Below, one piece after another: positions 343 through 15,719 of a DNA stretch of 15,719 bases. Below the pieces are notes generated by a model, which saw only the letters and a list, made by a program, of their open reading frames with translations, had not been told where the DNA came from and ran no database searches. The stretch's first letter is position 1, and each line of letters starts with the position of its first letter. The DNA comes from an uncultured Deferribacteres bacterium (GTDB taxonomy: Bacteria; Zhuqueibacterota; Zhuqueibacteria; Zhuqueibacterales; Geothermadaptataceae), in the NCBI GenBank assembly GCA_964014485.1, contig CAXHAT010000182.1, positions 1-15,719 of the forward strand. Direction: 5' to 3'. Both the position numbers and the translations under genes were made by a program.

Positions 343-381
343 TTGTTCGACAAAATGATTAAACCTGGATAATTCACGAAC

Positions 382-452
382 GTCATTCCCGCGCAGGCGG
401 GAATCCAGGGGCTGTGCGCGATTGAATGGATTCCCACCTGCGCGGGAATGAC
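382..452. repeat. Inverted REP doublet (REPIN-like), CGTC/dRS3-type ATTCCC-N8-GGGAAT units
   Basis: GTCATTCCCGCGCAGGCGGGAATCCA (382-407) and TGGATTCCCACCTGCGCGGGAATGAC (427-452) form a 26-bp inverted repeat with 1 mismatch and a 19-nt spacer. Each arm is itself a hairpin (ATTCCC-N8-GGGAAT). Confidence 0.9.
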
Positions 453-551
453 TTTGACGAGAGTTTCTACGGCGTCACGGCTGATGCGTAACATCGGTTA
501 TAAAGATGATTTTGACTCCAATTATTCTGACTTTAAAAAAAACAAAGATTT

Positions 552-1535
552 ATGAAAGCACTTGTCACAGGCGCGAACGGTTTTACCGGCAGTTATTTGA
601 CGAAGAATTTATTGAAAAACGGCTATGACGTTCGCGTGCTGGTGCGCAAATCTTCGGATTTGAGCGCGTTGAAGGATTTGCCGGTTGAGATTCACTACGC
701 CGATCTCTCCAACGGCCAGCCGGTTGAAGAAGCGACGGAGGGCATCGATGCGGTGTACCACATCGCGGCGCTTTTTCGCGCGGAAGATGTGCCGAAAAAG
801 ATGTTCTGGGACGTGAACGTCGGCGGCACGCGCAAACTGCTGGAAGCGTCGAAGAAGACCGGCGTGAAAAAATTTATCCATTGCAGCACGGTCGGCGTGC
901 AGGGCGAAATCAAGAATCCGCCCGCGACCGAAGACGCGCCTTACTCGCCCGGTGATTATTACCAGGACTCCAAAATGGACGGCGAGATGCTGGCGCTGGA
1001 TTTTTTCAGAAAAGAAGGACTGACCGGCACGGTCGTACGGCCCGTCGGCATTTACGGCCCCGGCGATCTACGGTTTTTAAAGCTGTTCAATTTCATTCAC
1101 AGCGGCAAATTTCGTATGATCGGCAACGGCAAAGTGCTGTATCACTTGACCTTTGTGGAAGATTTGGCGGAAGGCATTCGCCTTGCCGGAGAAAAGCACG
1201 AAGCCAACGGCGAAATTTTCACCATCGGCGGCGACGGCTTTTTGACGCTCAACGAGTTGGTCGCCAAAATCGCAGGCATTTTAGATAAGCCTGTACCGTC
1301 GTTTCGTATTCCGGTTTGGCCGGTGTGGTTCGCGGGATTGCTTTGCGAGGGCTTGTGCAAGCCGTTTGGCATATCGCCGCCCATCTACCGCCGCCGCGTC
1401 GATTTTTTCATCAAAGACCGCGCGTTCGATATTTCCAAAGCCAAAAACAAGCTCGGCTACCAACCTAAAGTCGAGCTCGACGACGGACTCAAGGTCACCG
1501 CGCAATGGTATAAAGAGCAAGGTTTGTTGAATTAG
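552..1535 (+). CDS. NAD-dependent epimerase/dehydratase (extended SDR)
   Basis: N-terminal 'ALVTGANGFTG' Rossmann motif, 'YHIAA', 'HCST', catalytic YxxxK ('YQDSK'), 'RP.GIYGPGD' and C-terminal 'LGYQP...DGL..T.QWY'. Confidence 0.92.
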   Translation: MKALVTGANGFTGSYLTKNLLKNGYDVRVLVRKSSDLSALKDLPVEIHYADLSNGQPVEEATEGIDAVYHIAALFRAEDVPKKMFWDVNVGGTRKLLEASKKTGVKKFIHCSTVGVQGEIKNPPATEDAPYSPGDYYQDSKMDGEMLALDFFRKEGLTGTVVRPVGIYGPGDLRFLKLFNFIHSGKFRMIGNGKVLYHLTFVEDLAEGIRLAGEKHEANGEIFTIGGDGFLTLNELVAKIAGILDKPVPSFRIPVWPVWFAGLLCEGLCKPFGISPPIYRRRVDFFIKDRAFDISKAKNKLGYQPKVELDDGLKVTAQWYKEQGLLN

Positions 1536-1556
1536 AAATCGCAGCTAATGCTTTTG

Positions 1557-1635
1557 TTTTTGACTGGATCAACCGGATTGACCGGATCAAGAAAGAAAAA
1601 GACAATCTAGTTGATCTTGTAAATCCCGTCAAAAA
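1557..1635. repeat. Imperfect inverted repeat of 3+3 tandem 9-nt units
   Basis: Left arm: TTTTT-GACTGGATC-AACCGGATT-GACCGGATC (1557-1588). Right arm: AATCTAGTT-GATCTTGTA-AATCCCGTC-AAAAA (1604-1635). Unit consensus is about NAC-NR-GATY. Confidence 0.75.
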
Positions 1636-1669
1636 AAATAGCTCCAAACGACATAAAGTCAGAAGAAAA

Positions 1670-2446
1670 ATGAGCAGTAAAAACGGCGTCAAAACCGAGA
1701 CGGTCGAGATTCAGAAAGATTTGCTCGACGCGAACAAGTCGAAATTACAAAAGTACCAGGAAATCATTCTTGGTACGACCGGCTTTTTCGATTTGGTGAA
1801 GTACGAGTTCATCACGCTTCTGTGCGGCTGGCTCCCCGGCGCGCTGGGGCTTCTTCTGCGCAGCAAGCTTTACCCGGTACTCCTCGGCAAAGTCGGCCGC
1901 AACGTGACGTTTGGGCAAAACGTCGTCCTGCGTCATCCCAAGAAAATCCGCATCGGGGACAATGTGGTGATCGACGATAACGTCGTACTCGACGCGAAAG
2001 GCGAGAACAATCGCGGGCTGTTTATCGGCGACGGCGTTTTTGTGGGACGGAATACGATTTTGAGTTGCAAGAACGGCGATATTCATCTTGAAGACGGTGC
2101 AAACATCGGTTTCAATTGCGAGATTTTTTCAGCGAACAAAGTGACGGTCGGCAAGAATGTTTTGATGGCGGCGTACTGCTATCTCGTCGGCGGTACCCAT
2201 ACGTTTGCGCGCACGGATATTCCAATTTTGCACCAGTCCCGCGAAGCGCGCGGCATTGCCGTCGGCGACAACGCCTGGCTGGGCGCACACGTTGTCGTTT
2301 TTGACGGCGTAGAACTCGGCAAGGAAAGCATCGTCGGCGCGGGCGCGGTCGTCAGCAAAAACGTCCCCGACTGGCAAATCGCCGCCGGCGTTCCGGCAAA
2401 GGTCGTGAAAGATCGCAGAAATGTGGAAGAATCCGCTGCTTTATAA
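1670..2446 (+). CDS. Hexapeptide-repeat (left-handed beta-helix) acyltransferase, probably a sugar O/N-acetyltransferase
   Basis: Repeated [LIV]G-x-x-x-x hexapeptides (IGDNVV, IGDGVF, VGKNVL, VGDNAW, LGKESI), a 'GGTH' motif and C-terminal 'AAGVPAKVVK'. Confidence 0.9.
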   Translation: MSSKNGVKTETVEIQKDLLDANKSKLQKYQEIILGTTGFFDLVKYEFITLLCGWLPGALGLLLRSKLYPVLLGKVGRNVTFGQNVVLRHPKKIRIGDNVVIDDNVVLDAKGENNRGLFIGDGVFVGRNTILSCKNGDIHLEDGANIGFNCEIFSANKVTVGKNVLMAAYCYLVGGTHTFARTDIPILHQSREARGIAVGDNAWLGAHVVVFDGVELGKESIVGAGAVVSKNVPDWQIAAGVPAKVVKDRRNVEESAAL

Positions 2447-2487
2447 AAATCAAAAACTACTTGAGAATCGAATAGGAATAGAATTTT

Positions 2488-2584
2488 TTAACGCAGAGTT
2501 CGCAAAGGCGCAGAGAGTGGGCAAATAATACTCAAAAATGAAAACACTCTGCGCTACTTTGCGCTCTCAGCGTCTCCGCGTTAA
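2488..2584. repeat. Imperfect inverted repeat of tandem CGCAGAG/CGCAAAG units with TTAAC...GTTAA ends
   Basis: Left arm: TTAA-CGCAGAGTT-CGCAAAGG-CGCAGAGAGTG (2488-2519). Right arm 2545-2584 reverse-complements to TTAA-CGCGGAGA-CGCTGAGAG-CGCAAAGTAG-CGCAGAGTG. Confidence 0.8.
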
Positions 2585-2585
2585 G

Positions 2586-2625
2586 AATCCACAATTCCAA
2601 AAATTCACTAATCCAACACTCCAAA
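2586..2625 (+). repeat. Five tandem degenerate 8-nt units (ANTCCANN)
   Basis: AATCCACA-ATTCCAAA-AATTCACT-AATCCAAC-ACTCCAAA, immediately after the CGCAGAG element. Confidence 0.55.
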
Positions 2626-2638
2626 AAGACTTCCCAGG

Positions 2639-3760
2639 ATGGGAAAACCAATCAAAGTTCTCCACGTCATCGATAAGTTTTCCATGGACGGAACCAACCC
2701 CAGCAGTTGCTCGCGGCTGTTTGCCGAGTGGATTCCGCGCCATGATGCGAGCCGTTTTCAGGTCGAAGTCGCCGGACTGCGTCCGCCCGATCCCGCCAGC
2801 GAGTTTTTGCAGCAGCACGATATGCGCGTGCATCACATCGACAAAGGCAAGATTTCTCCTAAAATCATTACTGAAATCGAGAAGATCGCCGTGACGGGCG
2901 GATTCCATATTCTGCATTTACACGGCTACTCGTCCGCGAATTTTGGCCGTATGGCGGCGAAACGAGCGAAGATTCGCAGCATTGTTCACGAACACGCGAT
3001 TCTGAAAATCCAGCCGCACCAGTTTCTCGTCGACCGGCTGTTGCGCGGCAAAAACGATGTTGGCATTGCCGTTTCACAGGCCGTGAAAGAATTTATGATT
3101 CAAGGCCGCTCCGTTCCCGCCGACAAAATCCGCGTCATCTGGAACGGCGTGCGCTTGCAGGATTTTCAAAACATCCCCCCCGAAAAAATCAGCGCTTTTC
3201 GCGCCAAGCACAATATTCCAACGGAAAAACGAATCATCGGCACGGTGACGCGATTGCGCGAAGAAAAAGGCAATGCTTTCCTTGTTGAAGCGGCGGCGCG
3301 GGTTTGCAAAGATTTTGAAGACGTCGTTTTCGTGCTGGTCGGCGACGGGCCGGATCGGGAAAGGCTGGAAAAACAGGCTCAGAACTTGGGCGTGTCGGAC
3401 AAAGTCATTTTCACAGGTTTCGAGCCTGAAATCGCCCCGGCGCTGGGCGCGATGGAAGTTGTGGCGATTCCGTCGTTGAACGAAGGCTTTGGCTTGGCGA
3501 TGGTGGAAGCGATGGCAGCGGGCAAGCCGGTGGTTGCAAGCAGGGTAGGAGGGATGCTTGAAATTGCCGAGCACGAAGAAACCGCACTCTTCGTCCCCCC
3601 TGCGAACGCCGAAAAACTGGCGGATGCGCTGTCGCGGCTATTACAAGATGGCGATTTTGCCGGGAAAATCAAGGAGAACGCGATGCGGCGGAGTTTGGAT
3701 TTTGGTATTGAGAAGAATGTGGCGGCTTTGGAGAAGTTGTATCAGGGCATGATGAGTTGA
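2639..3760 (+). CDS. Glycosyltransferase family 4 (GT-B fold)
   Basis: 'IKVLHVI' start, 'HLH', 'IAVSQAVK', 'VIWNGV', 'RL.EEKG', 'VGDGP.R', and the GT4 signature 'PS.NEGFGLAMVEAMAAGKPVVASRVGG..E'. Confidence 0.93.
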   Translation: MGKPIKVLHVIDKFSMDGTNPSSCSRLFAEWIPRHDASRFQVEVAGLRPPDPASEFLQQHDMRVHHIDKGKISPKIITEIEKIAVTGGFHILHLHGYSSANFGRMAAKRAKIRSIVHEHAILKIQPHQFLVDRLLRGKNDVGIAVSQAVKEFMIQGRSVPADKIRVIWNGVRLQDFQNIPPEKISAFRAKHNIPTEKRIIGTVTRLREEKGNAFLVEAAARVCKDFEDVVFVLVGDGPDRERLEKQAQNLGVSDKVIFTGFEPEIAPALGAMEVVAIPSLNEGFGLAMVEAMAAGKPVVASRVGGMLEIAEHEETALFVPPANAEKLADALSRLLQDGDFAGKIKENAMRRSLDFGIEKNVAALEKLYQGMMS

Positions 3761-3768
3761 TGACAGTT

Positions 3769-3785
3769 GACGGATGCAATCCGTC
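3769..3785. other. Perfect 7-bp hairpin GACGGAT-GCA-ATCCGTC between convergent genes
   Basis: Seen directly. There is no U-tract on either strand, so it could be a REP remnant or a pause/terminator-like hairpin. Confidence 0.45.
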
Positions 3786-3815
3786 GGCATTGATTCGACG
3801 GGGATTCTACGAAAC

Positions 3816-4088
3816 CTAAGCAGGGAGAAGATTCCCGTTGAGCAGGAGCGTTTCCAGTTCTTCCCAACTCATTTCTTCGCCTTCGCTCAAGGGTGTGGCG
3901 AGCGCTCTTTTGGTTTCTTCGTTCGGTATTTCCACGCGGAACGGCAGGCCCTGAACGGCAACGGCCTGGCGCAAAAACAGGTCGATCGCGCTCGAAAGAT
4001 CGAGACCGAGTCGTTTGAACAAAACGCTTGCGTCGGCTTTGAGCTTTGGGTTCGTTCGAGCGTGAATAACAGCGGTTTTGGTTGACAC
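3816..4088 (-). CDS. RelB/DinJ-family antitoxin (no adjacent toxin)
   Basis: 'I.AR....LK..A..LF..LGL..S.AI.LFL.Q.V...GLPF....PNEET..AL' is the typical DinJ/RelB RHH pattern. GTG start is preceded by an AAGGAG RBS. Confidence 0.88.
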   Translation of the reverse strand: MSTKTAVIHARTNPKLKADASVLFKRLGLDLSSAIDLFLRQAVAVQGLPFRVEIPNEETKRALATPLSEGEEMSWEELETLLLNGNLLPA

Positions 4089-4156
4089 GGGCGTTCTCCT
4101 TTGTTGATGGCGGAGCGGCGAATTGATACGAAATGTTTAAGAATCGCGAGATAAAA

Positions 4157-5572
4157 ATGCAAGTCAAAAACCTGTCGTTTGAAATCGATGAAGACAAACC
4201 TTTTGAAAATGATCAGTTATCACGCCGCAATAGCGCTGAAAATCTGACCCATCTCATCAAAACGATTGAACAGCCCTTCGTACTGGCGCTTGATTCTCCA
4301 TGGGGATCGGGGAAAACGACATTTATCAAAATGTTTGCCCAACACTTACAGCTACAAGGCGTGCCCACCCTTTATTTCAATTCTTGGGAGGTCGATTACA
4401 GCGATGACCCCTTAATTTCTTTTATTGGAGAAATTCAGAGCAGTTTAGAAGTGTCCAAAATCGATCCATCTAAAAAGAAAAAACTCGCTGGATACGTCAA
4501 AAAGGCAAAGAAACTTGGCGGTACGATCATCAAGGAATCGATCCCGCTGGCCTTAAAAATTGGAACGGCAGGGGCGCTGGACTTAGACAAATTCACTGAA
4601 AAGGCGTTTGCGGATTTTGCTGAGAAAGTGGCGCGAGAAAAAATAGATGGGTATCAGACATATAAGCGAACACTCGAAGATTTCAAAGAAAACTTGGGGA
4701 ATTTTGCCTCTGAAATTTCGAAAAGCGGCGATCAGCATTGTCCTTTAGTCTTCTTTATCGATGAATTGGATCGATGCAGGCCAAATTTCGCTGTCGAATT
4801 ATTGGAACGGCTCAAACATTTGTTTTCAGCGCCAGGAATCGTGTTTGTGCTTGCTATAGATAAGGCTCAGATTTCGAATTCGATAAAGTGTTTGTTTGGA
4901 AACGATATAAACACCGATGGCTATCTGCGTCGCTTTGTTGATCTTACTTACCAGCTTCCAATTGCTGGCTTAGATGAATTCTGCAATTTTTTATACCAAA
5001 AATTCGAGTTTTGGAAGTTTTTTGAACAAAGAAATGCAAACTTTCAAGACCGTGAAATTGAGTATAAACAACTCACCGAAACCTTCACAAGCGTAGCCAA
5101 CATTTTCAAGCTGAGTGCCAGGGTTGTCGAGCAGTGTATCGCTCAAATTAATATTATTGTGAGAACTACTCCTTTTGAAGAGAGTATTTATCCGATATTT
5201 TTGGGTTTCTTGATTTCTTACCGAGTCTTTAACGAAGAGAGATATGTAGCTTATTGCAAAGGAGAAATCCAACCAAGAGAGGTAATTAACGAACTCAAAG
5301 GACTAGATGGAGGGTACGAGTTTTTAGTATCTGAGCAATACGGGAAATTACTGGAAGCCTTTATCGCCAGCGCATTCTTAGATGCTAAAGAAATAAAGGA
5401 ACTTATAGATTTCTATAAAGGCTCTGAATATGCAAATAATTTGAATGAAGATGAGACTCAAGCCGCTGTGAGTATTATGAAACACTTGGCAACTTTTATT
5501 AGCTTTAGATACAATCGTATTATCGAAGAGATAGTGAAAAAAATCGAGATGAGTCATCGCTTTCAGTTCTGA
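4157..5572 (+). CDS. KAP-family P-loop NTPase
   Basis: 'PF.ND.L.R', Walker A 'ALDSPWGSGKT', 'YFNSW', Walker B 'LVFFIDELDRCRP', 'E.LE.LKHLF', 'GYLRRF.D..Y.LP'. Start is either ATG 4157 (preferred; the KAP signature begins soon after) or 4133. The gene is AT-rich relative to its neighbours. Confidence 0.9.
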   Translation: MQVKNLSFEIDEDKPFENDQLSRRNSAENLTHLIKTIEQPFVLALDSPWGSGKTTFIKMFAQHLQLQGVPTLYFNSWEVDYSDDPLISFIGEIQSSLEVSKIDPSKKKKLAGYVKKAKKLGGTIIKESIPLALKIGTAGALDLDKFTEKAFADFAEKVAREKIDGYQTYKRTLEDFKENLGNFASEISKSGDQHCPLVFFIDELDRCRPNFAVELLERLKHLFSAPGIVFVLAIDKAQISNSIKCLFGNDINTDGYLRRFVDLTYQLPIAGLDEFCNFLYQKFEFWKFFEQRNANFQDREIEYKQLTETFTSVANIFKLSARVVEQCIAQINIIVRTTPFEESIYPIFLGFLISYRVFNEERYVAYCKGEIQPREVINELKGLDGGYEFLVSEQYGKLLEAFIASAFLDAKEIKELIDFYKGSEYANNLNEDETQAAVSIMKHLATFISFRYNRIIEEIVKKIEMSHRFQF

Positions 5573-5647
5573 TAGCATCTTGATGAAAAATCTTTCGATT
5601 TTAGGTTCAAATGAGTTGTTAATAGGAGAAGGTCGGCTTTTCAATTT

Positions 5648-6877
5648 ATGTACGCAACGATTCTCAACAAACTCCGCTGGAGCTATCGCAAAAATTGGCC
5701 GGATATTAAAGGCTTGTTTTTGCGGCATTATCCGGAATTTGTTTTGTCCAACAGTTTGCGAGAATTGGGCGAGGAGATTCCGGTTTTTTGTTTTCACAGC
5801 GTGGAGCCGGAAGATTTTGAAGCCAAACTCGATTATCTCAAGAGCAACGATTACGCAACCCTCGACGGCGATGCGCTGCTCAAAGCCCTGCGCCGAGAAA
5901 CGCCCCTGCCCAAACGCGCCGTTGTGTTGACATTCGACGACGGCACGGCCACGCTCTATTCCGTTGCCTGGCCGCTGCTGCGGAAATACGGCTTTCAGGC
6001 GATCAGCTTTCTCATTCCTGGCTGCATCCCCGAGACCGCGCCAAAGCAGCCGATGTACGAGGATTGGGCTGCTGGAGATGTTGAAAAAAGCGCTTTGCTG
6101 GAGCGGGAAAAGGGCGATTTTCCGCTTTGTTCGTGGCAGGAAATTCGCGAGATGCACGCGAGCGGCGTGATCGATTTTCAGGCGCATACGATGCATCATC
6201 ATTTGATCCACGTTGCGCCGCAATTGGTCGATTTTATCCACCCCAACTACGACTTTTATTTCTACGCAAATATTCACGTTCCGGTCTACTATTCACAAGG
6301 TCAACCGGACTTTAGCCGCAAGGCTGCGCTTGGAACGCCGGTCTATCGCGCCGAACCGCACTTGTGCGGACGAGCGCAGTTTTTTGATGACGAATCCGCG
6401 CGCAGAACATGCGTCGAATATGTCGTGAAAAACGGCGGCGAGCGTTTTTTTGAGCGGGAAGATTGGCGAAAAGAATTGCTCGAAGTCCATCGCAACGCTT
6501 CAAAAAGCAACGGCCAAACGCGATTTGAATCGACTGAAGAAACCCGCGAAACGATCTTTCAGGATTTCGCTGAGTGCAAGCGGCAGATTGAGGAAAACAT
6601 CCCCGGAAAAAAGGTGGAGCATTTTTGTTTTCCCTGGTTCATCGGCTCGAACGTCGCTGTGGAAATGGCGCAAAAGGCAGGCTTTCAAGCATTGTATTGG
6701 GGCATTTTAAACGTCCGCCGCACCAACCGCCCCGGTGACGACCCACTGCGCGTTATGCGCGTGGAAGACCGTTATCTCGAACGTTTGCCGGGAGACGGGC
6801 GAAAGTCGCTGCGGGAGATTCTGGCGGGAAAAATCAACACGAATCTGCCGCTTTTTCGAAAGAGATTGAATAAATAA
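5648..6877 (+). CDS. Polysaccharide deacetylase (NodB/CE4 homology) with a large internal insertion
   Basis: 'PVFCFHSV', motif 1 'VVLTFDDG', 'L.W.EIREM..SG..DFQAHT.HH' (metal-binding His) and motif 3-like 'FCFPW'. Confidence 0.85.
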   Translation: MYATILNKLRWSYRKNWPDIKGLFLRHYPEFVLSNSLRELGEEIPVFCFHSVEPEDFEAKLDYLKSNDYATLDGDALLKALRRETPLPKRAVVLTFDDGTATLYSVAWPLLRKYGFQAISFLIPGCIPETAPKQPMYEDWAAGDVEKSALLEREKGDFPLCSWQEIREMHASGVIDFQAHTMHHHLIHVAPQLVDFIHPNYDFYFYANIHVPVYYSQGQPDFSRKAALGTPVYRAEPHLCGRAQFFDDESARRTCVEYVVKNGGERFFEREDWRKELLEVHRNASKSNGQTRFESTEETRETIFQDFAECKRQIEENIPGKKVEHFCFPWFIGSNVAVEMAQKAGFQALYWGILNVRRTNRPGDDPLRVMRVEDRYLERLPGDGRKSLREILAGKINTNLPLFRKRLNK

Positions 6878-6878
6878 A

Positions 6879-7087
6879 ACCACGGAAATACACGGAGTTG
6901 CACGGACGGGGGCATGGACGGACAGATTGAGAAGCACGCTGAAGCGTGAACTACAAACGACAGAGCTTCTCTTATGCTCAGAGTAGAAGGATACTCGGTC
7001 GTTTGTAGTCCATGCTTTAGCATGTTTTTTTTGTACGATTCGTCATGTATCCAAGGTGGATGTCATTTTTCCATGCCCCTCCGTGGT
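6879..7087. repeat. Outer inverted repeat of CA(C/T)GGA units at about 10-nt period
   Basis: Left arm: AC-CACGGA-AATA-CACGGA-GTTG-CACGGA-CGGGGG-CATGGA (6879-6918). Right arm TCCATGCCCCTCCGTGGT (7070-7087) reverse-complements to ACCACGGAGGGGCATGGA. Confidence 0.75.
6932..7027. repeat. GTAG-type REP doublet (REPIN-like), nested inside the CACGGA element
   Basis: 6932-6961 reverse-complements to GTCGTTTGTAGTTCACGCTTCAGCGTGCTT. 6998-7027 is GTCGTTTGTAGTCCATGCTTTAGCATGTTT (25/30 identical). Each copy is GTAG plus a short palindrome. Spacer is 36 nt. Confidence 0.85.
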
Positions 7088-7110
7088 CAAAAAAGCAAAA
7101 AAACAGTGAT

Positions 7111-9012
7111 ATGATATTCGGCAGCTTTGGGGAAGACATTACCAGGAATCTCGATCCGATCAATCCATTCAACGTTTGGGGGATTTCCGATAAAACAAGG
7201 GTACGCCACGACGCGCGCTGCGATCATTTTCTCATCGGCATGTGCTCGTCCGGCGCGCCGTCACACGATGCGGGGCATGCGCTTTATCGCAATGCGGAGT
7301 CCCGCGTTACCGTTGCGGTTTATGGGACAATTTTTAATGCGTCAACGCTCGCGCGCGAGTGGGGGGGAGGCGACAGCATCGGAGAAATTATTCACGCGGG
7401 CTACCAAAAAGCGGGATCAAAATTTTTCGCCAAATTGAACGGCAATTTTGTCATCGACATTCATGATCCAAAGAACGACCGGTTTTGGGTGGCGCGTGAT
7501 CATTTGGGCGTGGAATCGCTGTTTTTCTATCGCAAAAACAAAAAACTGCATTTCTGTTCAAAGCTCCATCCGCTGGCGAAGCACCCTGAAATCGAGACGG
7601 GGCTCAACCCGACGGCAGTGAGCCGCTACCTGCTTTTTAACTACAATCCCGCCTACGACTCTTTTTATCAAAACATCGAAAAGCTGCGTCCGGGCAATGT
7701 GCTGAAAATCGAAAAAGGCAAAATGCACATTGAGCCGTATTGGTACATCTCGTTCAAAGACCCGTTCGATAAATCTATCGAAACCTATCGCGAAGAATTG
7801 CTGGAACTGTTCCGTGACGCGATCAAAATTCGGCTGGACGACAAAAATTTTCGTACCGGCGCGTACCTGAGCGGCGGCATGGACAGCAGCACGGTCGTCG
7901 GCCTGATGCGTCCGATGATTGACGGCGACGTTCATACGTTTTCCTTTCGCTGTCGCGGCAAATCTTACGACGAATCGAAGTACGCGCGGTTGATGAGCGA
8001 TCATTACAAGACGCAACATCACGAAGTGCCGTACGAATCGGAGCACGTCGACCGCATCATGCAATTGGCGGGCGCGGTGAACGAACCGTTCTCGGACATC
8101 GGCATCGAGGTCGCGTCGTTTTTGCTGGCGGAGAAGGCCTCCGGCGTGGTGGACTATGTTTTGACCGGCGACGGCGGCGACGAGTTGTTCGGCGGGCATC
8201 CGGTGTATTTGGCCGACCGCATGGCGGAGAAATTCGAGAAAGTGCCGTCAATCTTGCGCAATCCGATGACCAGTTTGTTCCAAAAGCTGCCGGATACGGA
8301 TCAAAAGAAAAGCCTCGTTGTCAAGGCGAAACGATTTTCCTACAGCGCCCAGTTTCCGGCGGAGCTTTACAGCAATCGCTGGCGCATTTACTACACCGAT
8401 AACGAACTGCGTGACCTGCTGCATCCTGATTGGCGCGAGACCGTGCGCAATGCCGATCCGTTGCACGATATTAAAGACCTTTACACCGAAACGGACGGCG
8501 AAGATTTTCTCAGCAAAACGCTTTACGGCGACTACTACACCGTCGTTGGATTTTATCTTTCTCGCATGGAATTGGTGCGCAATTTCGGCTTGGAAGGACG
8601 AATTCCCATGCTCGATCATCGCCTGGTCGAGTACACGGCGCGTATTCCGTCGAACCTGAAAATTGGGCCTAAAGGTGAGACGAAGGATATTTTCCACAAG
8701 GTCATGGCCGGAACGCTGCCGGACGAGATCGTTTTTCGTACGGACAAGCTTGGCCACAGCGTGCCGTTCAAAAACTGGCTGCGCGACGCGTCGAACGTGC
8801 AGAAATTATTGAAAAAGTACACCTCGCCAGACATGCTGAAAAATCGCGGCATGTTCAACCCGAAATTTGTTGAGCGCATGTACAATTCGCACATGAGCCG
8901 CGCCGAAAACAATAGCCACCGCTTGTGGGCGATTCTGGTTTTTGAGTTGTGGTGTCAGCGGCATTTGGATGGAGCGGGAGTTGAAGAAGGGATGAATGCG
9001 CAACCTGCTTAG
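7111..9012 (+). CDS. Asparagine synthase-like (AsnB-family) amide synthetase with a degenerate glutaminase domain
   Basis: Carries 'LNGNF', 'ARDHLG...LF', PP-loop 'YLSGGMDSS', 'EPFSD', 'LTGDGGDELFGGH', 'LEGR.PMLDHRLVEY' and 'K.GH.VP..W'. ATG 7111 is preferred because the 7045 start runs through a repeat arm and A-tracts. No N-terminal Cys with either start. Confidence 0.88.
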   Translation: MIFGSFGEDITRNLDPINPFNVWGISDKTRVRHDARCDHFLIGMCSSGAPSHDAGHALYRNAESRVTVAVYGTIFNASTLAREWGGGDSIGEIIHAGYQKAGSKFFAKLNGNFVIDIHDPKNDRFWVARDHLGVESLFFYRKNKKLHFCSKLHPLAKHPEIETGLNPTAVSRYLLFNYNPAYDSFYQNIEKLRPGNVLKIEKGKMHIEPYWYISFKDPFDKSIETYREELLELFRDAIKIRLDDKNFRTGAYLSGGMDSSTVVGLMRPMIDGDVHTFSFRCRGKSYDESKYARLMSDHYKTQHHEVPYESEHVDRIMQLAGAVNEPFSDIGIEVASFLLAEKASGVVDYVLTGDGGDELFGGHPVYLADRMAEKFEKVPSILRNPMTSLFQKLPDTDQKKSLVVKAKRFSYSAQFPAELYSNRWRIYYTDNELRDLLHPDWRETVRNADPLHDIKDLYTETDGEDFLSKTLYGDYYTVVGFYLSRMELVRNFGLEGRIPMLDHRLVEYTARIPSNLKIGPKGETKDIFHKVMAGTLPDEIVFRTDKLGHSVPFKNWLRDASNVQKLLKKYTSPDMLKNRGMFNPKFVERMYNSHMSRAENNSHRLWAILVFELWCQRHLDGAGVEEGMNAQPA

Positions 9013-9395
9013 AAAAGCGTTTGGACTGGGTAGCGCCGTATGTTCTGGTCTTTGGTAAGCAATGTGAGATCATAAGTCAACGATTGGCAAATCAACATGC
9101 GATCAAACGGATCGTGATGCAGCGACGGTAAATCGAGTAGCCGCATGATGCTTTTTTCGTCCAACTCCAGGCTGGCGATTTGATGAAAGTTTCTCTGGTC
9201 GATCAAATACGGCTTAGCCGGCTTGTCAAGCGGAAGTTTCCCCTTTTGATATTTTAGAAGAATTTCCCAGATCGACACAACGCTCAAATAGACGATGTTG
9301 CTGAGGTCTTCGATAATATCGGCGACGATCTCGGAGCCATGTTCATCTTCCGTGATATACCAAAGAAAAGCGTGTGTATCCAAAAGGTACTTCAC
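9009..9395 (-). CDS. vapC: PIN-domain VapC-family toxin
   Basis: 'YLLDTHAFLW', 'S.VSIWEI..K..KGKL', 'LP.LH.DPFDRMLI.Q', 'LLTKD'. The GTG start overlaps the antitoxin stop (GTGA). Its stop overlaps the convergent asnB-like stop at 9009-9012. Confidence 0.93.
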   Translation of the reverse strand: MKYLLDTHAFLWYITEDEHGSEIVADIIEDLSNIVYLSVVSIWEILLKYQKGKLPLDKPAKPYLIDQRNFHQIASLELDEKSIMRLLDLPSLHHDPFDRMLICQSLTYDLTLLTKDQNIRRYPVQTLF

Positions 9396-9679
9396 TTGTC
9401 CGCGAGCCCAAGAAATTCGTACTCAGGCAATGGATCATCGAAGTCTTCGGGAACGACAAAATCACCCTTCGCGAGACCGCGCGGGCGTGTGGGAACCGAT
9501 TTCATCTCGGCGACAAGCTTGCCCTTGTGTTTGATAACGATCACTTCGCCGTCTTGCACGCGATCGAGAATCGCTTCGAAGTCCTTTAGCACTTCTTCCA
9601 TATGAAGATAAGTGCGATGTTTGTGTTTGTTTTCTTTGAGCTTACCGGTTTCCGCCGAATCAATATTTGCCGCGTTCAT
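9392..9679 (-). CDS. Phd/YefM-type antitoxin (VapB-like partner)
   Basis: 'F..ILDRV..GE.IVI...GK.VA' Phd fold, followed by 'R.RG..KG...VPEDFD.PLP', typical of antitoxins paired with this VapC clade. ATG 9679 has a GGGAGA RBS, so the 9757 start in the ORF track is unlikely. Confidence 0.85.
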   Translation of the reverse strand: MNAANIDSAETGKLKENKHKHRTYLHMEEVLKDFEAILDRVQDGEVIVIKHKGKLVAEMKSVPTRPRGLAKGDFVVPEDFDDPLPEYEFLGLADK

Positions 9680-9703
9680 GATTTTTCTCCCATAATTGGT
9701 GAA

Positions 9704-9719
9704 GCTTTGTAAGCAAAGC
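9704..9719. promoter_or_regulatory. Candidate TA autoregulatory operator GCTTTG-N4-CAAAGC
   Basis: Perfect 6-bp inverted repeat about 25 nt upstream of the antitoxin ATG. It lies next to a possible - strand promoter (TTGCTT-N18-TAGTAT). Confidence 0.45.
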
Positions 9720-9777
9720 ATACTAAACGCATCGATCAATTTAAAGCAAAAAATCAATCAGAAATTCAACGCATCCT

Positions 9778-10731
9778 TTGCTTAAGAATAAATCCTTCAA
9801 ATTCATCTTTAAGCTCGCCGTCAGTATTGCGCTCATCTGGTTTTTGCTGAAAAGCGTCGATCTGAGCGAGATTCAGAATTCGCTGATCGATGTTAATTTA
9901 ATGATGCTCACGTTGGCGGGCGTTTTGTTTTTTGGGCATCAGATTCTGGTGGCGTGGTGCTGGCAAATCTTGTTGGCGGCGCAGGGCAATCGCGTGCCGT
10001 TTATGCGCGTTTTGCAGGTGCATTTCATCGGCAATTTTATCGGTGTTTTCATGCCGACGAGCATTGGGATGGACGTGGTGCGCGCCTACAGCCTGGCGAA
10101 ATACATGAAGAACGGCGTTGATTCGGCGAGTTCGATGTTTGTCAGCCGTGTCGTCGGCTACCTGGTGTTTTTTGCCATGGCGATCAGCATGGCGGTCCCG
10201 CTGGTTCAAAAAACAGGGGAGCCGTTGTTCTTCTTGCTGGTCGTTTTTACCGCTGTTTGCTTCATTTTGGGCGTGTGGCTGCTCCTCAGTAAAAAAATGC
10301 TGAATGCTCTCCAACCACTTTGCTCGCGATTTAATCTCGAAAAAATTGTCGGCAAACTGCGCGAATTCCAAGCAAGCATTTTGGCGTTTCGCCGACAGCG
10401 CAACGCCATGCTCAATCTCCTTTTCTGGACAATCGTTTATCAAGTTTTAGGGATTTATATACCTTACCTCATCGGCCTGAGTCTTGGCATAGAAATCAGC
10501 TTTATCTATTACTTCGTCACCATTCCTGTAATCATGGCGATCACAATTCTACCAATTTCCATTGGCGGCATCGGCGTACGCGAGTGGTCGTTTAAAGCGC
10601 TGTTCGTCCCTCTCGGCGCAACGGGCGGGCAGGCGGTTTCTCTTTCGATTCTGTTCATGCTTTTGGGAATCATGATCGCGCTTTTTGGCGGAATTGTTTA
10701 CCTGTTTTCAGGCAGCCGCGGCAAGCGTTGA
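9778..10731 (+). CDS. Lysylphosphatidylglycerol synthase TM-domain (UPF0104) flippase-like membrane protein
   Basis: About 8 hydrophobic segments, 'W..LL', 'IG.F....PT.IG.D.VRAY', 'LPISIGGIGVRE'. TTG start; exact start uncertain. Confidence 0.85.
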   Translation: MLKNKSFKFIFKLAVSIALIWFLLKSVDLSEIQNSLIDVNLMMLTLAGVLFFGHQILVAWCWQILLAAQGNRVPFMRVLQVHFIGNFIGVFMPTSIGMDVVRAYSLAKYMKNGVDSASSMFVSRVVGYLVFFAMAISMAVPLVQKTGEPLFFLLVVFTAVCFILGVWLLLSKKMLNALQPLCSRFNLEKIVGKLREFQASILAFRRQRNAMLNLLFWTIVYQVLGIYIPYLIGLSLGIEISFIYYFVTIPVIMAITILPISIGGIGVREWSFKALFVPLGATGGQAVSLSILFMLLGIMIALFGGIVYLFSGSRGKR

Positions 10732-10732
10732 G

Positions 10733-10782
10733 AGTGATCAGTAAACAGTTTACTGAATACTGATCACGAATCACTCATCACT
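10733..10782. repeat. Inverted repeat of tandem 7-nt units (AGTRANC / ACTGANY)
   Basis: AGTGATC-AGTAAAC-AGT-TT-ACTGAAT-ACTGATC-ACGAATC-ACTCATC-ACT. GTGATCAGTA (10734-43) pairs perfectly with TACTGATCAC (10758-67). It lies between convergent genes. Confidence 0.75.
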
Positions 10783-10788
10783 AAAAAC

Positions 10789-12141
10789 TCACTCCCCAGC
10801 CTTTAATTTCCCAAACCCCGGCCCTTTGACGCCAAACACCGGCATAAGATCGCTCGGCACGCGCTCGGGCGGGGTAACGAGCTGCGCCGGCAGGGCTGTT
10901 CCCGGATCGGTGAGCGCACGCATAAAAGCGACGACGGCCGCCGCTTCTTCGTCGCTTAAATCGAGCGGCTCGCGCAGCGAAGGATGCAGAGTGTTCACTG
11001 GAACTTCGGGGTGGCGCGGACTAGCGCCTTCGTTATAGAAATCAACCACTTCCTCCAACGTATAAAAAACGCCGTCGTGCATGTAAGGCGCGGTCAATTC
11101 CACATTGCGCAAGGTCGGCGTGCGGAAGGCGTAGCGGTCGCGGCTCAAGCCGGTGTGCTCTTCCCGCCCTAAATCATCTCCCGGAATCGTGTCTTTGCCC
11201 GGCCCTTCCTGCGGCACGGCTTGTACGACGTATTGATAATCGCTGAACATCGGGCCGTTGTGGCAGTCGCCGCACTTGGCTTTGGTGAAAAACAATTCCA
11301 ATCCCCATTTTTGCTGTGCGGTCAAAGCATTACCGTCGCCGCCGACGAATCGATCATAGGCGGAGTTGCGCGTGACGAGCTCTCGTTCATAAGCCGCAAT
11401 ACTGCGAGCGTAGGTTGATGAATCGATGGCCGTCGTGCGGTTTCCGGAAGCAATTTCCTGCGCTTCCTTTGGAAAGGCGGCGCGGAACAGCGTTTCATAA
11501 TCAGGAATAGCCTGCAGACGCGCCAGAACGCTATCGAGTGCGGCTGCGGCGGCATGCTCGTCTGAACCGGGATAAGCGTCGCCGCGCATCTCGACTCGGG
11601 AAGTGATCGGTTTGGACGCCTGCGCTTCCAGGCCTTCCGCGCGTCCGTCCCAGAATTGCAGACCTTTGGCCGAAGGACGCCCATTAATGTCGCCGTTGAA
11701 GGCTGTGTTAAAAATCGTTGGCGCGTTGCGCGGCGTAAAGTCAATCAGTGCGCCGGTCATAGCCGATTGGGTCAAGAATCGGTTTGGTCCCAGGCCGACG
11801 CCGCTGGTTCCGACTGGCAACTGCCGCCCGTCTGCGAAGCCAAAATCGGGATGGTGACATGTCGCGCAGGCCACGTCTTTTTCACCGCCGAGAATTGGAT
11901 CAAAAAACAGCAAGCGCCCCAAAGCAATGCGCTCGGCGCGCGGCGGATTGTCCGCGGGGTAGGGAATATCGCCAAGGGTCTGCAAATCGAACATCTCGAT
12001 CAGATCATCTTCAACGCCCGGATCCGGCGTGACTGGGTCGTTGTCGCCGCAGGCGGAGAACAGCGTAGCTGAACAAAGAATAAGTACCGCCGTGCGTCTT
12101 CTTATCGTTTGCCAAATTGTTGTTTCCATAAAAGTCTTCAT
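10789..12141 (-). CDS. Di-heme cytochrome c peroxidase/MauG-superfamily lipoprotein
   Basis: Two CxxCH motifs (CATCH, CGDCH), 'LGRLLFFDP.L', 'RNAPT..N', 'QFWDGRA..LE.QA..PI', 'FRTPTLRNV.LTAPYMHDG'. Signal peptide has RRR and a lipobox-like 'LFSAC'. ATG 12141 has an AGGAGG RBS. Confidence 0.92.
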   Translation of the reverse strand: MKTFMETTIWQTIRRRTAVLILCSATLFSACGDNDPVTPDPGVEDDLIEMFDLQTLGDIPYPADNPPRAERIALGRLLFFDPILGGEKDVACATCHHPDFGFADGRQLPVGTSGVGLGPNRFLTQSAMTGALIDFTPRNAPTIFNTAFNGDINGRPSAKGLQFWDGRAEGLEAQASKPITSRVEMRGDAYPGSDEHAAAAALDSVLARLQAIPDYETLFRAAFPKEAQEIASGNRTTAIDSSTYARSIAAYERELVTRNSAYDRFVGGDGNALTAQQKWGLELFFTKAKCGDCHNGPMFSDYQYVVQAVPQEGPGKDTIPGDDLGREEHTGLSRDRYAFRTPTLRNVELTAPYMHDGVFYTLEEVVDFYNEGASPRHPEVPVNTLHPSLREPLDLSDEEAAAVVAFMRALTDPGTALPAQLVTPPERVPSDLMPVFGVKGPGFGKLKAGE

Positions 12142-12167
12142 TGTAAATCCTCCTGAAATCATCACCC

Positions 12168-12192
12168 GTTCCGGCGAACCGGAACATTTTTT
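12168..12192. other. Perfect 7-bp hairpin GTTCCGG-CGAA-CCGGAAC followed by ATTTTTT (+ strand)
   Basis: Terminator-like on the + strand. On the - strand it has a UUCG loop and lies in the probable 5' leader of the peroxidase, just upstream of its RBS. Confidence 0.5.
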
Positions 12193-12284
12193 GAAAATCG
12201 CTCTACACGCGGCGAATCACCAATCCGCAATTTTGTAACTTTTTTGATAAACCTTGAAAATATCATCCAAAAAACTTTAGTGCG

Positions 12285-12496
12285 GAGCTCACTGCCTGAC
12301 ACTTTTTTGTAAACTGCATTTTCGAGCCTTCGAAAGGCCGCCGTCTTGTCATTCTGAAGGAATCTTTGTTATCGCCCGGTACAGATCATGCCCAAAAGTT
12401 CAAGGGCTAGATCAAAAAGATGCTTAAAGCATGACAATTCCGGCCTTTTTCGCCAACTTTCGAAGCCTGTACAAATAATGTCAGGTAGTGAAGTTC
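12285..12496. repeat. Long nested imperfect inverted repeat (about 210 nt) with a central TGTC-type REP doublet; MITE/REPIN-like
   Basis: Paired segments from outside in: CACTGCCTGACACTTTTTTGTA (12290-311) / TACAAATAATGTCAGGTAGTG (12470-490); CTTCGAAAG / CTTTCGAAG; AAAGGCCG / CGGCCTTT; TTGTCATTCTGAAGGAATCTTT (12346-367) / AAAGATGCTTAAAGCATGACAA (12416-437); GATC..GCCC / GGGC..GATC. Confidence 0.75.
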
Positions 12497-12533
12497 GGAG
12501 GCGATCAGCCTGTCGAAACAATAATTTTTCACT

Positions 12534-12570
12534 AAAAAAACAGCCCGCCCGGTTTCCCGAGACGAGCTGT
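12534..12570 (-). terminator. Rho-independent terminator of the large secreted-protein gene
   Basis: Minus strand reads ACAGCTCGTCTCGG-GAAA-CCGGGCGGGCTGT-TTTTTT: a GC-rich stem with G-U pairs, a GNRA loop and a U-tract, about 70 nt after the stop. Confidence 0.85.
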
Positions 12571-12598
12571 CTTATGAGAAGCAGGGTTTACACGATTT

Positions 12599-12634
12599 GT
12601 AAACTGTTTACTGTTCTCTGCTTATTGATTACTG
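12599..12634. repeat. Tandem 7-nt units related to the 10733-10782 element (half element)
   Basis: GTAA-ACTGTTT-ACTGTTC-TCTGCTT-ATTGATT-ACTG. 12599-12613 is the exact reverse complement of 10739-10753. Confidence 0.6.
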
Positions 12635-12640
12635 AAAAAA

Positions 12641-15600: not shown

Positions 15601-15719
15601 CAATCGGCGGTTCGCCGTTCTGGAACACGCCGTCGCCGTTCGTGTCTTCCCAAACAAAGTTACCGATCTTGGCGGACTGTTTGAAGGCCGCATCGATGGA
15701 GTTGTTGGTTTCGCCGCTG
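12641..15719 (-). CDS. Large secreted/surface protein, 5'-truncated: SdrD-B-like repeats, probable beta-propeller, F5/8 type C (discoidin/CBM32-like) domain, and T9SS type A/FlgD-Ig-like C-terminal domain
   Basis: Frame is open to the window edge (SGETNNSIDAAFKQSAKIGNFVWEDTNGDGVFQ...), so 15628 is an internal Val. Repeats 'IG.FVW.D.N.DG....GE..I.G.TVNL.D.NG.....T.ANGEY.F...PG.YIVEF..P...D...DSD'. F5/8 domain at about 12992-13363 ('N.ALNA...S...A.NAVDGD..S.W...W..VDLG', 'ARYVR', 'SI.ELEVY'). C-terminal domain at about 12641-12916 ('LHQNYPNPFNPTT.IRF.LP', 'YN..GQLVRTL', 'WD.RD..G..V.SG.Y.YRI'). Confidence 0.9.
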   Translation of the reverse strand, partial: SGETNNSIDAAFKQSAKIGNFVWEDTNGDGVFQNGEPPIVGATVNLCDENGSSVTDLNGNSSLTTDANGEYCFIVKPGTYIVKFPTPTGYVDCDEDLGNDDQLDSDYDPDNNNQTPPITVTSNETNNSIDAAFKLPAKIGNLVWNDYNQDGIQNGNEPGIPGVTVNLLDCNGNPATDINGNASTVTNADGEYCFDVKPGCYIVEFVNPDPVIYQTCLQDQGNDDELDSDYNPANGQTGQITVVSGETNNSIDACYFIPSKIGDFVWEDIDGDGVFDQGEPPIVGATVNLLDCNGNPTADVTGASTLQTGANGEYCFNVLPGCYIVEFETPAGFITCLQDQGNDDGADSDYDPATGQTAQITIDPGEEENSIDACFTQPAKLGNFVWMDDNRDGIFDNGEQPIEDVKINLLDANGNPVQDLNGNSSLTTNAQGEYCFDVAPGTYIVEFCEPEVTGYSVVFDCDQDQGTDDELDSDYNPADNQTDPVALISAEINNSVDGSFFLCDDVYVYGFTDEDPGQMVRFNLNDPDGTFEVVADVVTYFGPVLGGQPGEGFPFCEPLDNLRGAVCVETDNGLKIYVITTKGDQATIMEVNPITGEAWSLVNLHTAGGEDVDNIRSLAWCDDTGKFYGVQKKTNLLVCIDPATGETSYYADPIVEEKVDRQIEGLAFRMENGQKVLYGVDEDEGDIYSIDWQGNGEGALVCETGIDGLTSIEFGANGEVFASSRKDGLLYVVDMNACTATPISNNIDMGSVQAIVYKPCPIFDLPIPADASANTGNGNLNPSGGNMALNASVSASTSDDGAASNAVDGDMDSEWESEKKNDFEWFMVDLGMNETVGRVTVAWHSKNYAEVFDIEVSTDGSSWTTVASMTRDDKGTDEVTFAQVTARYVRVYMTQGRKSRYSIDELEVYESNIIPKRAVLTEEADEELATVIPGAFTLHQNYPNPFNPTTLIRFELPEAGAVKLTVYNTAGQLVRTLVNGAMPAGVHSLKWDARDERGKRVTSGLYLYRIEANGQVAMKKMTLMK
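14210..15719 (-). repeat. Intragenic tandem repeats of about 360 nt (120-125 aa SdrD-B-like domains), four complete units plus the end of a fifth
   Basis: Units start at 15673 (AKIGNF), 15310 (AKIGNL), 14944 (SKIGDF) and 14584 (AKLGNF). Each ends in 'NNS(I/V)D' or 'ENSID'. Confidence 0.9.

Follow-up and report, generated by a model that had tools for sequence, protein, structure and literature searches.

Bacterial miniature inverted-repeat transposable elements (MITEs) that derive from DDE insertion sequences are non-coding, carry terminal inverted repeats, have a uniform length and are bordered by a target duplication. In the pairing of repetitive extragenic palindromes (REPs) with a REP-associated tyrosine transposase (RAYT), a GTAG tetramer stands beside a short hairpin, two REPs in inverted orientation form a doublet (REPIN) present in tens of extragenic copies, and the gene of the Y1 HUH transposase, usually one per genome, lies between the same repeats, as set out for proteobacteria in the account of Bertels and Rainey (2011, PMC3116915) and for the E. 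coli enzyme in PDB 4ER8. A report on Ssn nucleases (Nat Commun 2025, PMC11893778) describes SsnA as a small single-domain GIY-YIG protein that binds and cuts its hairpin motif, NTS (Neisseria Transformation Sequence), only as single-stranded DNA; most Ssn genes have such hairpins alongside, and Ssn is treated as a host factor restricting single-stranded DNA in naturally competent Neisseria. Two further kinds of repeat bear on what follows: the intervening sequence (IVS) of the Coxiella burnetii 23S rRNA (PMC4990558), in which a small gene for an S23p four-helix-bundle protein is enclosed by long-stem inverted arms, and the tandem heptamer repeats of Xanthomonas and Nostoc (Rehm et al. 2015, PMC4692102). 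Here we compare with these systems the palindromic elements found at the junctions of a cell-surface glycan operon in a stretch of 15,719 nucleotides (the window), which is the entire contig C182 of an 8.40-Mb genome bin (465 contigs, 97% complete, 0.8% contamination) from an uncultivated marine bacterium.

We hypothesize, with a probability of about 0.72, that four unrelated kinds of small, non-autonomous palindromic element have colonised the junctions of this operon, and that each kind is linked with an enzyme of its own. The elements belong to families that are present in many copies and biased towards intergenic DNA, they stand at junctions that are empty in orthologous loci, members of the families lie next to genes of the enzymes in question, and the MITE among them is bordered by target duplications.

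The operon is a conserved one, and its genes, as assigned with Pfam, encode an asparagine synthase (AsnB, of which the window holds the tail), an NAD-dependent epimerase, a hexapeptide acyltransferase, a GT4 glycosyltransferase, a polysaccharide deacetylase, a second AsnB and an LPG-synthase-like membrane protein. The closest public relatives, found through the deacetylase at 56-63% amino-acid identity, are metagenome bins labelled candidate division KSB1 or Calditrichaeota, and six relative loci retain the same order of the seven genes. The six junctions between them measure 12, 28, 39, 36, 46 and 0 nt in two of these loci (L088 and L089), and 209, 134, 192, 1887, 233 and 765 nt in the window; since the junctions of the relatives span only 0-46 nt, those of the window are to be regarded as filled sites. 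Each window junction has gained either a repeat element or a gene pair. The first pair, a RelB-like gene (3816-4088, minus strand) and a KAP-family NTPase gene (4133-5572, plus strand), together 3816-5572, is missing from the GT4-deacetylase junction of the relatives, which is 19-84 nt long in the five tabulated (L088, L090-L093). The second, a PIN-domain toxin gene (9009-9395) with a small gene upstream of it (9392-9757), together 9009-9757 on the minus strand, is missing from their AsnB-LPG synthase junction (0-23 nt). A preliminary description of the window had proposed that such elements accumulate at glycan-locus junctions alongside toxin-antitoxin (TA) and KAP genes, and this is borne out, the elements being multi-copy, intergenic and absent from the orthologous junctions, and the TA and KAP genes being likewise extra. 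The relatives hold palindromes of their own, different from those of the window, at some of these operon junctions (L090:5834-6063, L092:5078-5910, L090:9225-9390 and L091:3255-3341), so that the junctions appear to have been struck repeatedly in separate lineages; the deacetylase-AsnB junction of L090 and L091 carries an NTS-like doublet.

The preliminary description had placed an inverted-repeat element in each of six spacers (343-551, 1536-1669, 2447-2638, 6878-7110, 10732-10788 and 12142-12640) and none inside a coding sequence. Repeat finder, DNA folds and family profiles together recover all six, and within coding sequences of the window the short inverted pairs of 12-15 nt occur at chance level only, the sole repeated stretches inside genes being paralogous protein domains at 12683-12926 and 14269-15719. 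Each spacer element was used as the seed for three nhmmer rounds against the whole genome, with overlapping hits merged, and intergenic bias was judged against the calls of a custom, crude codon-usage gene caller (6095 genes, 85% coding). Family S1 (seed 379-458) has 279 loci on 182 contigs, 216 of them with less than 10% of their length called coding; by the same measure 57 of 69 loci are intergenic for S2 (seed 1557-1635), 81 of 92 for S3 (seed 2481-2590), 61 of 74 for S4 (seed 6933-7026) and 275 of 317 for S6 (seed 12283-12497). All five match on both strands, as palindromes do, which the smaller family S3b and the single-copy S5 do not. At least one element of the five families is found in 522 of the 2784 intergenic regions of 100 nt or more, and there is a slight bias towards junctions of tandem genes, which hold 81% of S2 and S3 copies and 80% of S4 copies compared with 67% of intergenic bases. 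Five of the six elements are therefore neither single-copy nor fixed at one position in all relatives. The two architectures into which the preliminary description had divided them, REP-type doublets and arms of tandem degenerate units, proved too coarse, as four kinds can be told apart; a clear internal period, of 9 nt, is confined to the S2 arms, and the arms of S1 (379-407), S4 (6932-6975) and S6 (12283-12385) have no periodicity (p 0.34-0.97).

Copies of S2, S3, S4 and S6 share a median pairwise identity of 72-76%, and in these four families the two arms of one copy pair no better than arms taken from different copies, so that no compensatory change is seen; in S1 self-pairing slightly exceeds cross-copy pairing (0.80 vs 0.77), an excess that may reflect the S1 subfamilies. 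The lack of any pairing advantage in the four families points to amplification from palindromic masters followed by neutral decay, and argues against hairpins held by selection at each site. Genes lying between neighbouring copies of the same family are ordinary ones (sulfotransferase-like genes, a TA pair, transporters), apart from the RAYT pairs and the gene on contig C359 described below.

The element at 6933-7026 is a REPIN of 94 nt. Its two inverted REPs comprise hairpins at 6935-6948 and 7011-7024, with CTAC at 6951-6954 and GTAG at 7005-7008, and a T-run follows the right-hand hairpin; the arms detected in the spacer 6878-7110 (6932-6965 and 6994-7027, 34 nt) are 82% complementary, and the S4 consensus is a 93-nt hairpin, perfect in appearance, with a short palindrome beside GTAG at each end and a fold of -53.0 kcal/mol. 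Among the seven Y1 transposase matches of the genome are two 201-aa RAYT genes, on contigs C64 and C76, each with S4 copies on both sides (C64 29032-29126 and 29833-29926; C76 24674-24767 and 25482-25574), which enclose gaps of 707 and 715 nt. These RAYTs score 86.6 and 79.7 bits, respectively, with the NCBIfam model REP_Tyr_transpos (NF047646; cut-off 80), and the C64 protein (P0002) matches E. coli TnpA-REP (PDB 4ER8) with an E value of 1.6e-8, its HUH and Tyr motifs aligned. The earlier proposal that a GTAG-type element is tied to RAYT is thus upheld by S4 itself, which resembles the described REPIN-RAYT systems in its GTAG beside a short hairpin and its inverted REP pair, in its tens of extragenic copies, and in the Y1 HUH transposase gene between the same repeats. 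It differs from them in having two RAYT copies instead of the usual one, in the nesting of the window copy within another stem, and in its host, which is an uncultivated bacterium of KSB1/Calditrichaeota type and not a proteobacterium.

Searches for relatives of the S4 RAYT, at 44-56% identity and from many phyla, confirmed 157 stretches, of which 80 were kept, and the word that marks the S4 REP, CTACAAAC, is present in 16 of those 80 loci. Two genomes from another genus of the family contain the 26-nt REP unit, without the whole REPIN, at 92-96% identity; a search of 28 other relatives did not find the unit. The outer stem in the window (6879-7090; roughly 6879-6925 paired with 7066-7090 and made of ACGGA-type units) is single-copy, no other copies having been found in the genome; the DNA of the whole spacer folds at -45.1 kcal/mol, and the outer arm 6885-6931 has a periodicity with p 0.03. 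The S4 REPIN lies in the loop of this stem, an arrangement resembling the insertion of one element at the tip of another hairpin. In all, the genome has three genes for RAYTs and three for IS200-like proteins. The third RAYT (C241:9500-10516, locus L005; 101 bits on REP_Tyr_transpos) has its own GTAG-bearing palindromes, in about 30 copies, none of them in the window, and IS200-like TnpA genes (C5:46260-46410 and C361:440-520) have TTTCACCCC...GGGGT-type hairpins alongside, in about 10-14 copies.

The doublet at 381-455, which had been taken for a CGTC-type REP of the RAYT kind, is by its sequence an NTS/SRM hairpin doublet, carrying the motif expected to be the substrate of small GIY-YIG Ssn nucleases. 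Its first unit (381-408, plus strand, 28 nt) matches the NTS motif CGTCATTCCCGCGMAVGCGGGAATCYRG at every position, and its second (427-455, minus strand) is an inverted, slightly degenerate partner with a few mismatches, the two forming a 77-nt doublet hairpin (379-458); in the spacer 343-551 the arms 379-407 and 427-455, 29 nt each, are 93% complementary, and the S1 consensus folds at -46.8 kcal/mol. The strict motif occurs 69 times in the genome. About 100 S1 copies extend into a composite of roughly 170-190 nt with the doublet at its core, and the central loop of this composite occurs facing either way with respect to the outer parts. Of the composite, the window copy contains the right-hand part (456-503, plus strand; delimited from the coverage profile and an alignment of 40 long copies) and lacks the left-hand one. 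The exact 27-mer of the window is found in at least 123 stretches of public genomes from many phyla.

Four small GIY-YIG genes are present in the genome, on contigs C343, C229, C86 and C156. The 95-aa gene on C343 has canonical NTS units on both sides, and its paralogue on C229 (77% identical) has five doublets of a variant unit around it. The two genes on C86 and C156 form a second subfamily with a different hairpin alongside, TGTCATTC-loop-GAATC, and each subfamily is enriched for its own motif only (P 1.5e-9 to 1.7e-3). None of the GIY-YIG proteins reaches an NCBIfam cut-off. Proteins of the first subfamily share 55-60% identity with small GIY-YIG proteins from beta- and gammaproteobacterial metagenome-assembled genomes, and two of the three genes concerned have the same hairpin alongside. 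The likeness to the described Ssn/NTS system (PMC11893778) lies in the exact fit to the 28-nt NTS, in the small single-domain GIY-YIG genes flanked by the motif, and in a second nuclease subfamily provided with a hairpin motif of its own. The differences are that the host is an uncultivated marine bacterium and not a competent Neisseria, that the S1 units are mostly arranged as inverted doublets, about 100 of them within a longer composite, and that the second motif is carried inside a MITE. RAYTs were considered as partners of the doublet and set aside: no S1 copy lies within 1.5 kb of any of the seven Y1 loci of the genome, none of the 80 RAYT-relative loci from other phyla carries the NTS-type motif, and in five other genomes with the exact 27-mer a site is nearby at only one of 20 Y1 loci.

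The spacer 12142-12640 belongs neither with the REPs nor with the periodic arms between which the preliminary description had divided the elements. The sequence at 12288-12492 is a MITE of 205 bp, with 14-nt terminal inverted repeats YTCWCTACCTGACA, and it carries hairpins of the second Ssn-type motif. It is bordered by an 8-bp target duplication at 12280-12287 (GTGCGGAG) and 12493-12500 (GTTCGGAG), with seven of eight positions matching. The terminal repeats are matched 162 times in the genome, and a reversed pattern not once. Among 57 intact pairs of 8-nt flanks, 20 are identical and 34 have at most one difference, where 0.46 and 0.68, respectively, occur in a mismatched-pair control, and these matching flanks are the signature of a transposase that makes 8-bp staggered cuts. 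For S1, S2 and S4 no target duplication was found, the longest direct word at their ends being that of the mismatched-pair control. S6 copies are 87-90% identical to the window copy, suggesting that the family expanded in a burst within this lineage alone; a search of 30 relatives did not find the element. The inner hairpin, TGTCATTC-loop-GAATC, stands at 12346-12367 (plus strand) with its inverted partner at 12416-12437; the motif occurs 256 times in the genome, with five and three occurrences within 600 nt of the GIY-YIG genes on C86 and C156 (0.045 expected), and about 200 shorter loci of the S6 family consist of the inner part alone. S6 is like the MITEs derived from DDE insertion sequences in its ends, its 8-bp duplication, its uniform length, its lack of coding capacity and its burst in one lineage, and unlike them in that no parent insertion sequence was found in the assembly and in the Ssn-type hairpins inside it.

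The remaining two of the five families have arms in which short units recur, with a clear period in S2 only. S2 (1557-1635), with ends TTTTTGAC...GTCAAAAA, is a gene-less palindrome whose arms (1557-1590 and 1602-1635) consist of three 9-nt GGATTRAC-type units each; the 9-nt period is significant in the window arms (p<0.0005 on the left and 0.03 on the right) and in the consensus (p<0.0005). S3 (2481-2590) is a gene-less palindrome of about 110 nt in which CGCARAG recurs roughly every 9 nt, four times per consensus arm, with a weak fixed-lag autocorrelation (p 0.08 in the consensus, 0.26-0.64 in the window copy). In the spacers 1536-1669 and 2447-2638 the repeat finder missed both elements, owing to the degeneracy of these copies; folded with DNA parameters, the two form long hairpins (-16.8 and -26.1 kcal/mol), and both copies match their family profiles on either strand. 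S3 adjoins a plus-strand tract of 8-nt TCCAA-type units (2583-2636), which has a weak similarity to an arm of the arrays on either side of a four-helix-bundle gene on contig C111; blastn hits to this tract reach an E value of 0.0007-0.008 only, many of them register-shifted in tandem arrays, and an nhmmer search of the genome seeded with 2585-2640 found no other copy.

The preliminary description had suggested that such arms flank GxxExxY or four-helix-bundle genes in other genomes, and this holds. A 145-aa gene on C359, lying between S2-family sequences, encodes a GxxExxY protein (PDDEXK_3, E 5.7e-31; TIGR04256, 114.5 bits, cut-off 35); its right flank is an S2 right arm, and the inverted-repeat score of its flanks, 28, is at the 99.6th percentile of 449 control genes. 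Four-helix-bundle genes, for which the genome has nine matches (23S_rRNA_IVP), sit between other periodic arms. Among the nine GxxExxY or four-helix-bundle genes with enough flank to be compared with the 449 controls, six reach at least the 98th percentile in inverted-repeat score, and four of those six do so in arm periodicity as well, each with a different unit of 7-9 nt. GxxExxY genes occur in 55 of 61 sampled genomes of the phylum, with up to 11 per genome, and the flank score is 20 or more at 13 of 27 testable loci of the phylum compared with none of 51 shifted controls. Profiles built from this genome only, applied to 30 GxxExxY loci of other genomes of the phylum, place S3 beside the gene in nine and S2 in three (12 of 30 in all), and the S1, S4 and S6 profiles match at none of the 30. 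The three S2 matches are L272, L263 and L268, and in L272 the GxxExxY gene has the left arm on its upstream side and the right arm on its downstream side. The window copies of S2 and S3 are accordingly the gene-less form of a GxxExxY cassette. Several GxxExxY copies in relatives (G084, G085, G057, G047 and others) have one to three internal stop codons, as expected of decaying selfish genes. Elsewhere in the genome, at C204:8213-9400, a RelE/ParE-type toxin gene and its ribbon-helix-helix partner have an S2 copy and then an S3 copy on both sides.

These cassettes share with the Coxiella burnetii 23S rRNA IVS a small gene within long-stem inverted arms, and both are regarded as selfish and horizontally acquired, for the IVS on the account in PMC4990558. 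S2 and S3 differ from the IVS in lying between protein-coding genes, in being gene-less, in their arms of 9-nt units (clearly periodic in S2) and in having gene-bearing relatives with GxxExxY and not S23p. They resemble the Xanthomonas and Nostoc heptamer repeats in their short units of 7-9 nt, clearly tandem in S2, and in an intergenic position mostly between co-oriented genes; the heptamers are read as direct arrays forming G-quadruplexes in the description by Rehm et al. (PMC4692102), whereas the units here form inverted arms tied to a gene family. The papers found in our searches on GxxExxY, four-helix-bundle and rRNA IVS proteins do not, by their titles and the opening parts of their abstracts, deal with flanking repeats.

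Under the hypothesis of colonised junctions, the enzymes encoded beside each family would be its mobilisers, a role assigned because of gene adjacency and, for the RAYTs, also because of published work. The RAYT, as an HUH tyrosine transposase, would act on the single-stranded REP hairpin and copy S4 REPINs; Ssn-type GIY-YIG nucleases would bind and cut the NTS hairpins of S1 as single-stranded DNA; a transposase making 8-bp staggered cuts would have inserted S6; and a GxxExxY nuclease (PD-(D/E)XK-like) would move the S2 and S3 cassettes, of which the full form would be the gene between inverted arms of tandem 9-nt units. The elements probably persist at junctions because insertions elsewhere are selected against. 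More tentatively, and at somewhat less than even odds, we suggest that S2 and S3 are non-autonomous copies of a widespread class of mobile cassette, of which we have found no printed description, that the GxxExxY nuclease reads the arms by their phased 9-nt units and brings about copying into intergenic DNA with no duplication of the target, that four-helix-bundle (rRNA IVS-type) genes share this vehicle, that the 23S rRNA IVSs and the unexplained cyanobacterial and xanthomonad heptamer repeats would belong to one element class, and that the genome would hold four independent nuclease-hairpin partnerships.

The hairpins might instead be local signals (terminators, RNase III sites or mRNA stabilisers) that evolved in place under selection and were never inserted. 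On both strands the S4 consensus ends with a hairpin and a T-run behind it, and 7011-7024 of the window copy is scored as terminator-like; the hairpin at 10734-10767 is single-copy and lies between convergent genes; and 23S rRNA IVSs of similar build are cut by RNase III in the account of PMC4990558. Yet five of the six elements belong to families of 69-317 loci, the orthologous junctions of the relatives (0-46 nt) lack them, pairing is not kept up by compensatory change in individual copies, a pattern scan of the window gives no excess of terminator-like sites beyond chance (33 vs 25.8 expected, standard deviation 5.1), and the T-run of S2 precedes its hairpin rather than trailing it, so that we consider local signals improbable. 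Still less credible is the proposal that RAYTs move every doublet as a REPIN, 381-455 and the inner hairpins of 12288-12492 among them, with the GIY-YIG genes as bystanders at shared hot spots. The genome does encode three RAYTs and three IS200-like proteins, and the Ssn paper itself likens Ssn to RAYT/REP in one passage (PMC11893778); the Y1 loci are nonetheless without S1 copies in this genome, without the motif among the RAYT relatives of other phyla and nearly without nearby sites in the five other 27-mer genomes, as given above, the sole S6 copy near a Y1 gene lies about 1.3 kb from the gene on C5, and each GIY-YIG subfamily keeps to its own motif.

A greater, if still minor, chance has to be given to the view that the periodic arms are not moved by GxxExxY proteins, the gene being passive cargo or the gene-less hairpins arising from tandem repeats by local slippage or palindrome formation; on balance we think this unlikely. 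In its favour, four-helix-bundle genes, which lack a nuclease fold, are found in the same kind of arms, there is a single S2-armed gene for the 69 S2 loci and none for the 92 S3 loci, and gene-less tandem arrays of 7-8-nt units are common here as in the repeats described in PMC4692102. Against these stand the travelling together of the arm family and the GxxExxY gene family across genomes, the place of GxxExxY in Pfam PDDEXK_3, a family of nuclease fold, and the uniform length and loop of the gene-less copies, which favour one gene-less master over many local origins.

Several points weigh against the hypothesis of colonisation by four kinds of enzyme-linked element. The links to enzymes rest on adjacency, and to our knowledge neither Ssn nor GxxExxY proteins have been reported to move DNA. 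No movement was seen, in that no contig joins across an element in three DNA runs of one study, kept as contigs; contigs of the public runs break at repeats and give evidence of excision neither way. The source genome is a metagenome bin in 465 contigs, the figures for intergenic bias depend on the crude custom gene calls, and the copies are old, as their median pairwise identity of 72-76% indicates. The two RAYTs of the S4 clade are 82% identical to each other, one per genome being usual. A search of one Neisseria lactamica genome with the C343 GIY-YIG protein gave no match, and the sole small GIY-YIG gene of that genome by Pfam belongs to another clade and is without the motif. No autonomous S6 partner was found in the assembly, where no end pair encloses an open reading frame of transposase size with matching flanks. 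The left flank of the GxxExxY gene on C359 is a short, nearly complete S2 copy and not a clean left arm, and S3 has no gene-bearing copy in this assembly.

Of the lesser features, S5 (10734-10767) is a hairpin of 16 bp between the 3' ends of two convergent genes, with arms 10734-10749 and 10752-10767 that are 16 nt long and 88% complementary, a fold of -10.3 kcal/mol and a periodicity of p 0.07 over 10732-10750. The nhmmer search of the genome found only S5 itself (one locus, and none counted as less than 10% coding), so that the spacer 10732-10788 drops out of the mobile set in which it had been placed; S5 belongs to no repeat family and may be a terminator or nothing at all. S3b (seed 3766-3814, plus strand) is an oriented, non-palindromic repeat of 47-49 nt that reaches from the GT4 stop codon to the 3' end of the RelB-like gene; it has 13 loci, 11 of them less than 10% called coding and none matched on both strands, and it contains a CGTAGAAT-like word common to the repeats that flank the third RAYT on C241. 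Beyond the operon, the window encodes a di-haem peroxidase and a large secreted protein that carries a type IX sorting domain. At 12534-12569 (minus strand) a GC-rich hairpin with a T-run after it is by sequence and fold the probable intrinsic terminator of the secreted-protein gene; it lies outside any repeat family and is unlisted in the terminator pattern scan. The sorting domain at the end of that protein (12683-12926) is matched at the DNA level at about 57 sites elsewhere in the genome. Rfam, scanned over the full window at E values up to 1, gave only two hits, both at chance level, and a promoter pattern scan of the window was not above the shuffled expectation. At contig ends, adapter-like words (DVYKRQ in translation) occur at C343:28-46 and C36:48666-48721 and at loose ends of one public run, the C36 end matching 54-86 further places in the assembly, and these words resemble adapter left untrimmed in the bin; four contigs have tandem arrays of 8-nt units at an end (C296:6-69, C392:6-58, C154:8-52 and C299:7037-7089), which suggests that such arrays break assembly.

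REPIN-RAYT and Ssn-NTS are published systems, of which S4 and S1 are new members in a distant lineage, and a MITE with Ssn-type hairpins is a variant that we have not found described. Both systems are thereby extended to an uncultivated lineage far from the proteobacteria where they were described, and an Ssn-type hairpin is seen riding within a MITE that makes target duplications. The 12-kb operon offers an internally controlled picture, with an insertion-free gene order in the relatives and, here, a different element or TA/KAP gene at each junction. Elements of this sort break metagenome assemblies and yield spurious short open reading frames. The gene-less periodic-arm hairpins are tied to GxxExxY genes by evidence from within this genome and across genomes, an association that we have not found in the literature; if it is true that GxxExxY proteins mobilise them, one explanation would serve for two very large families of small proteins and for the short-period intergenic repeats of many phyla.

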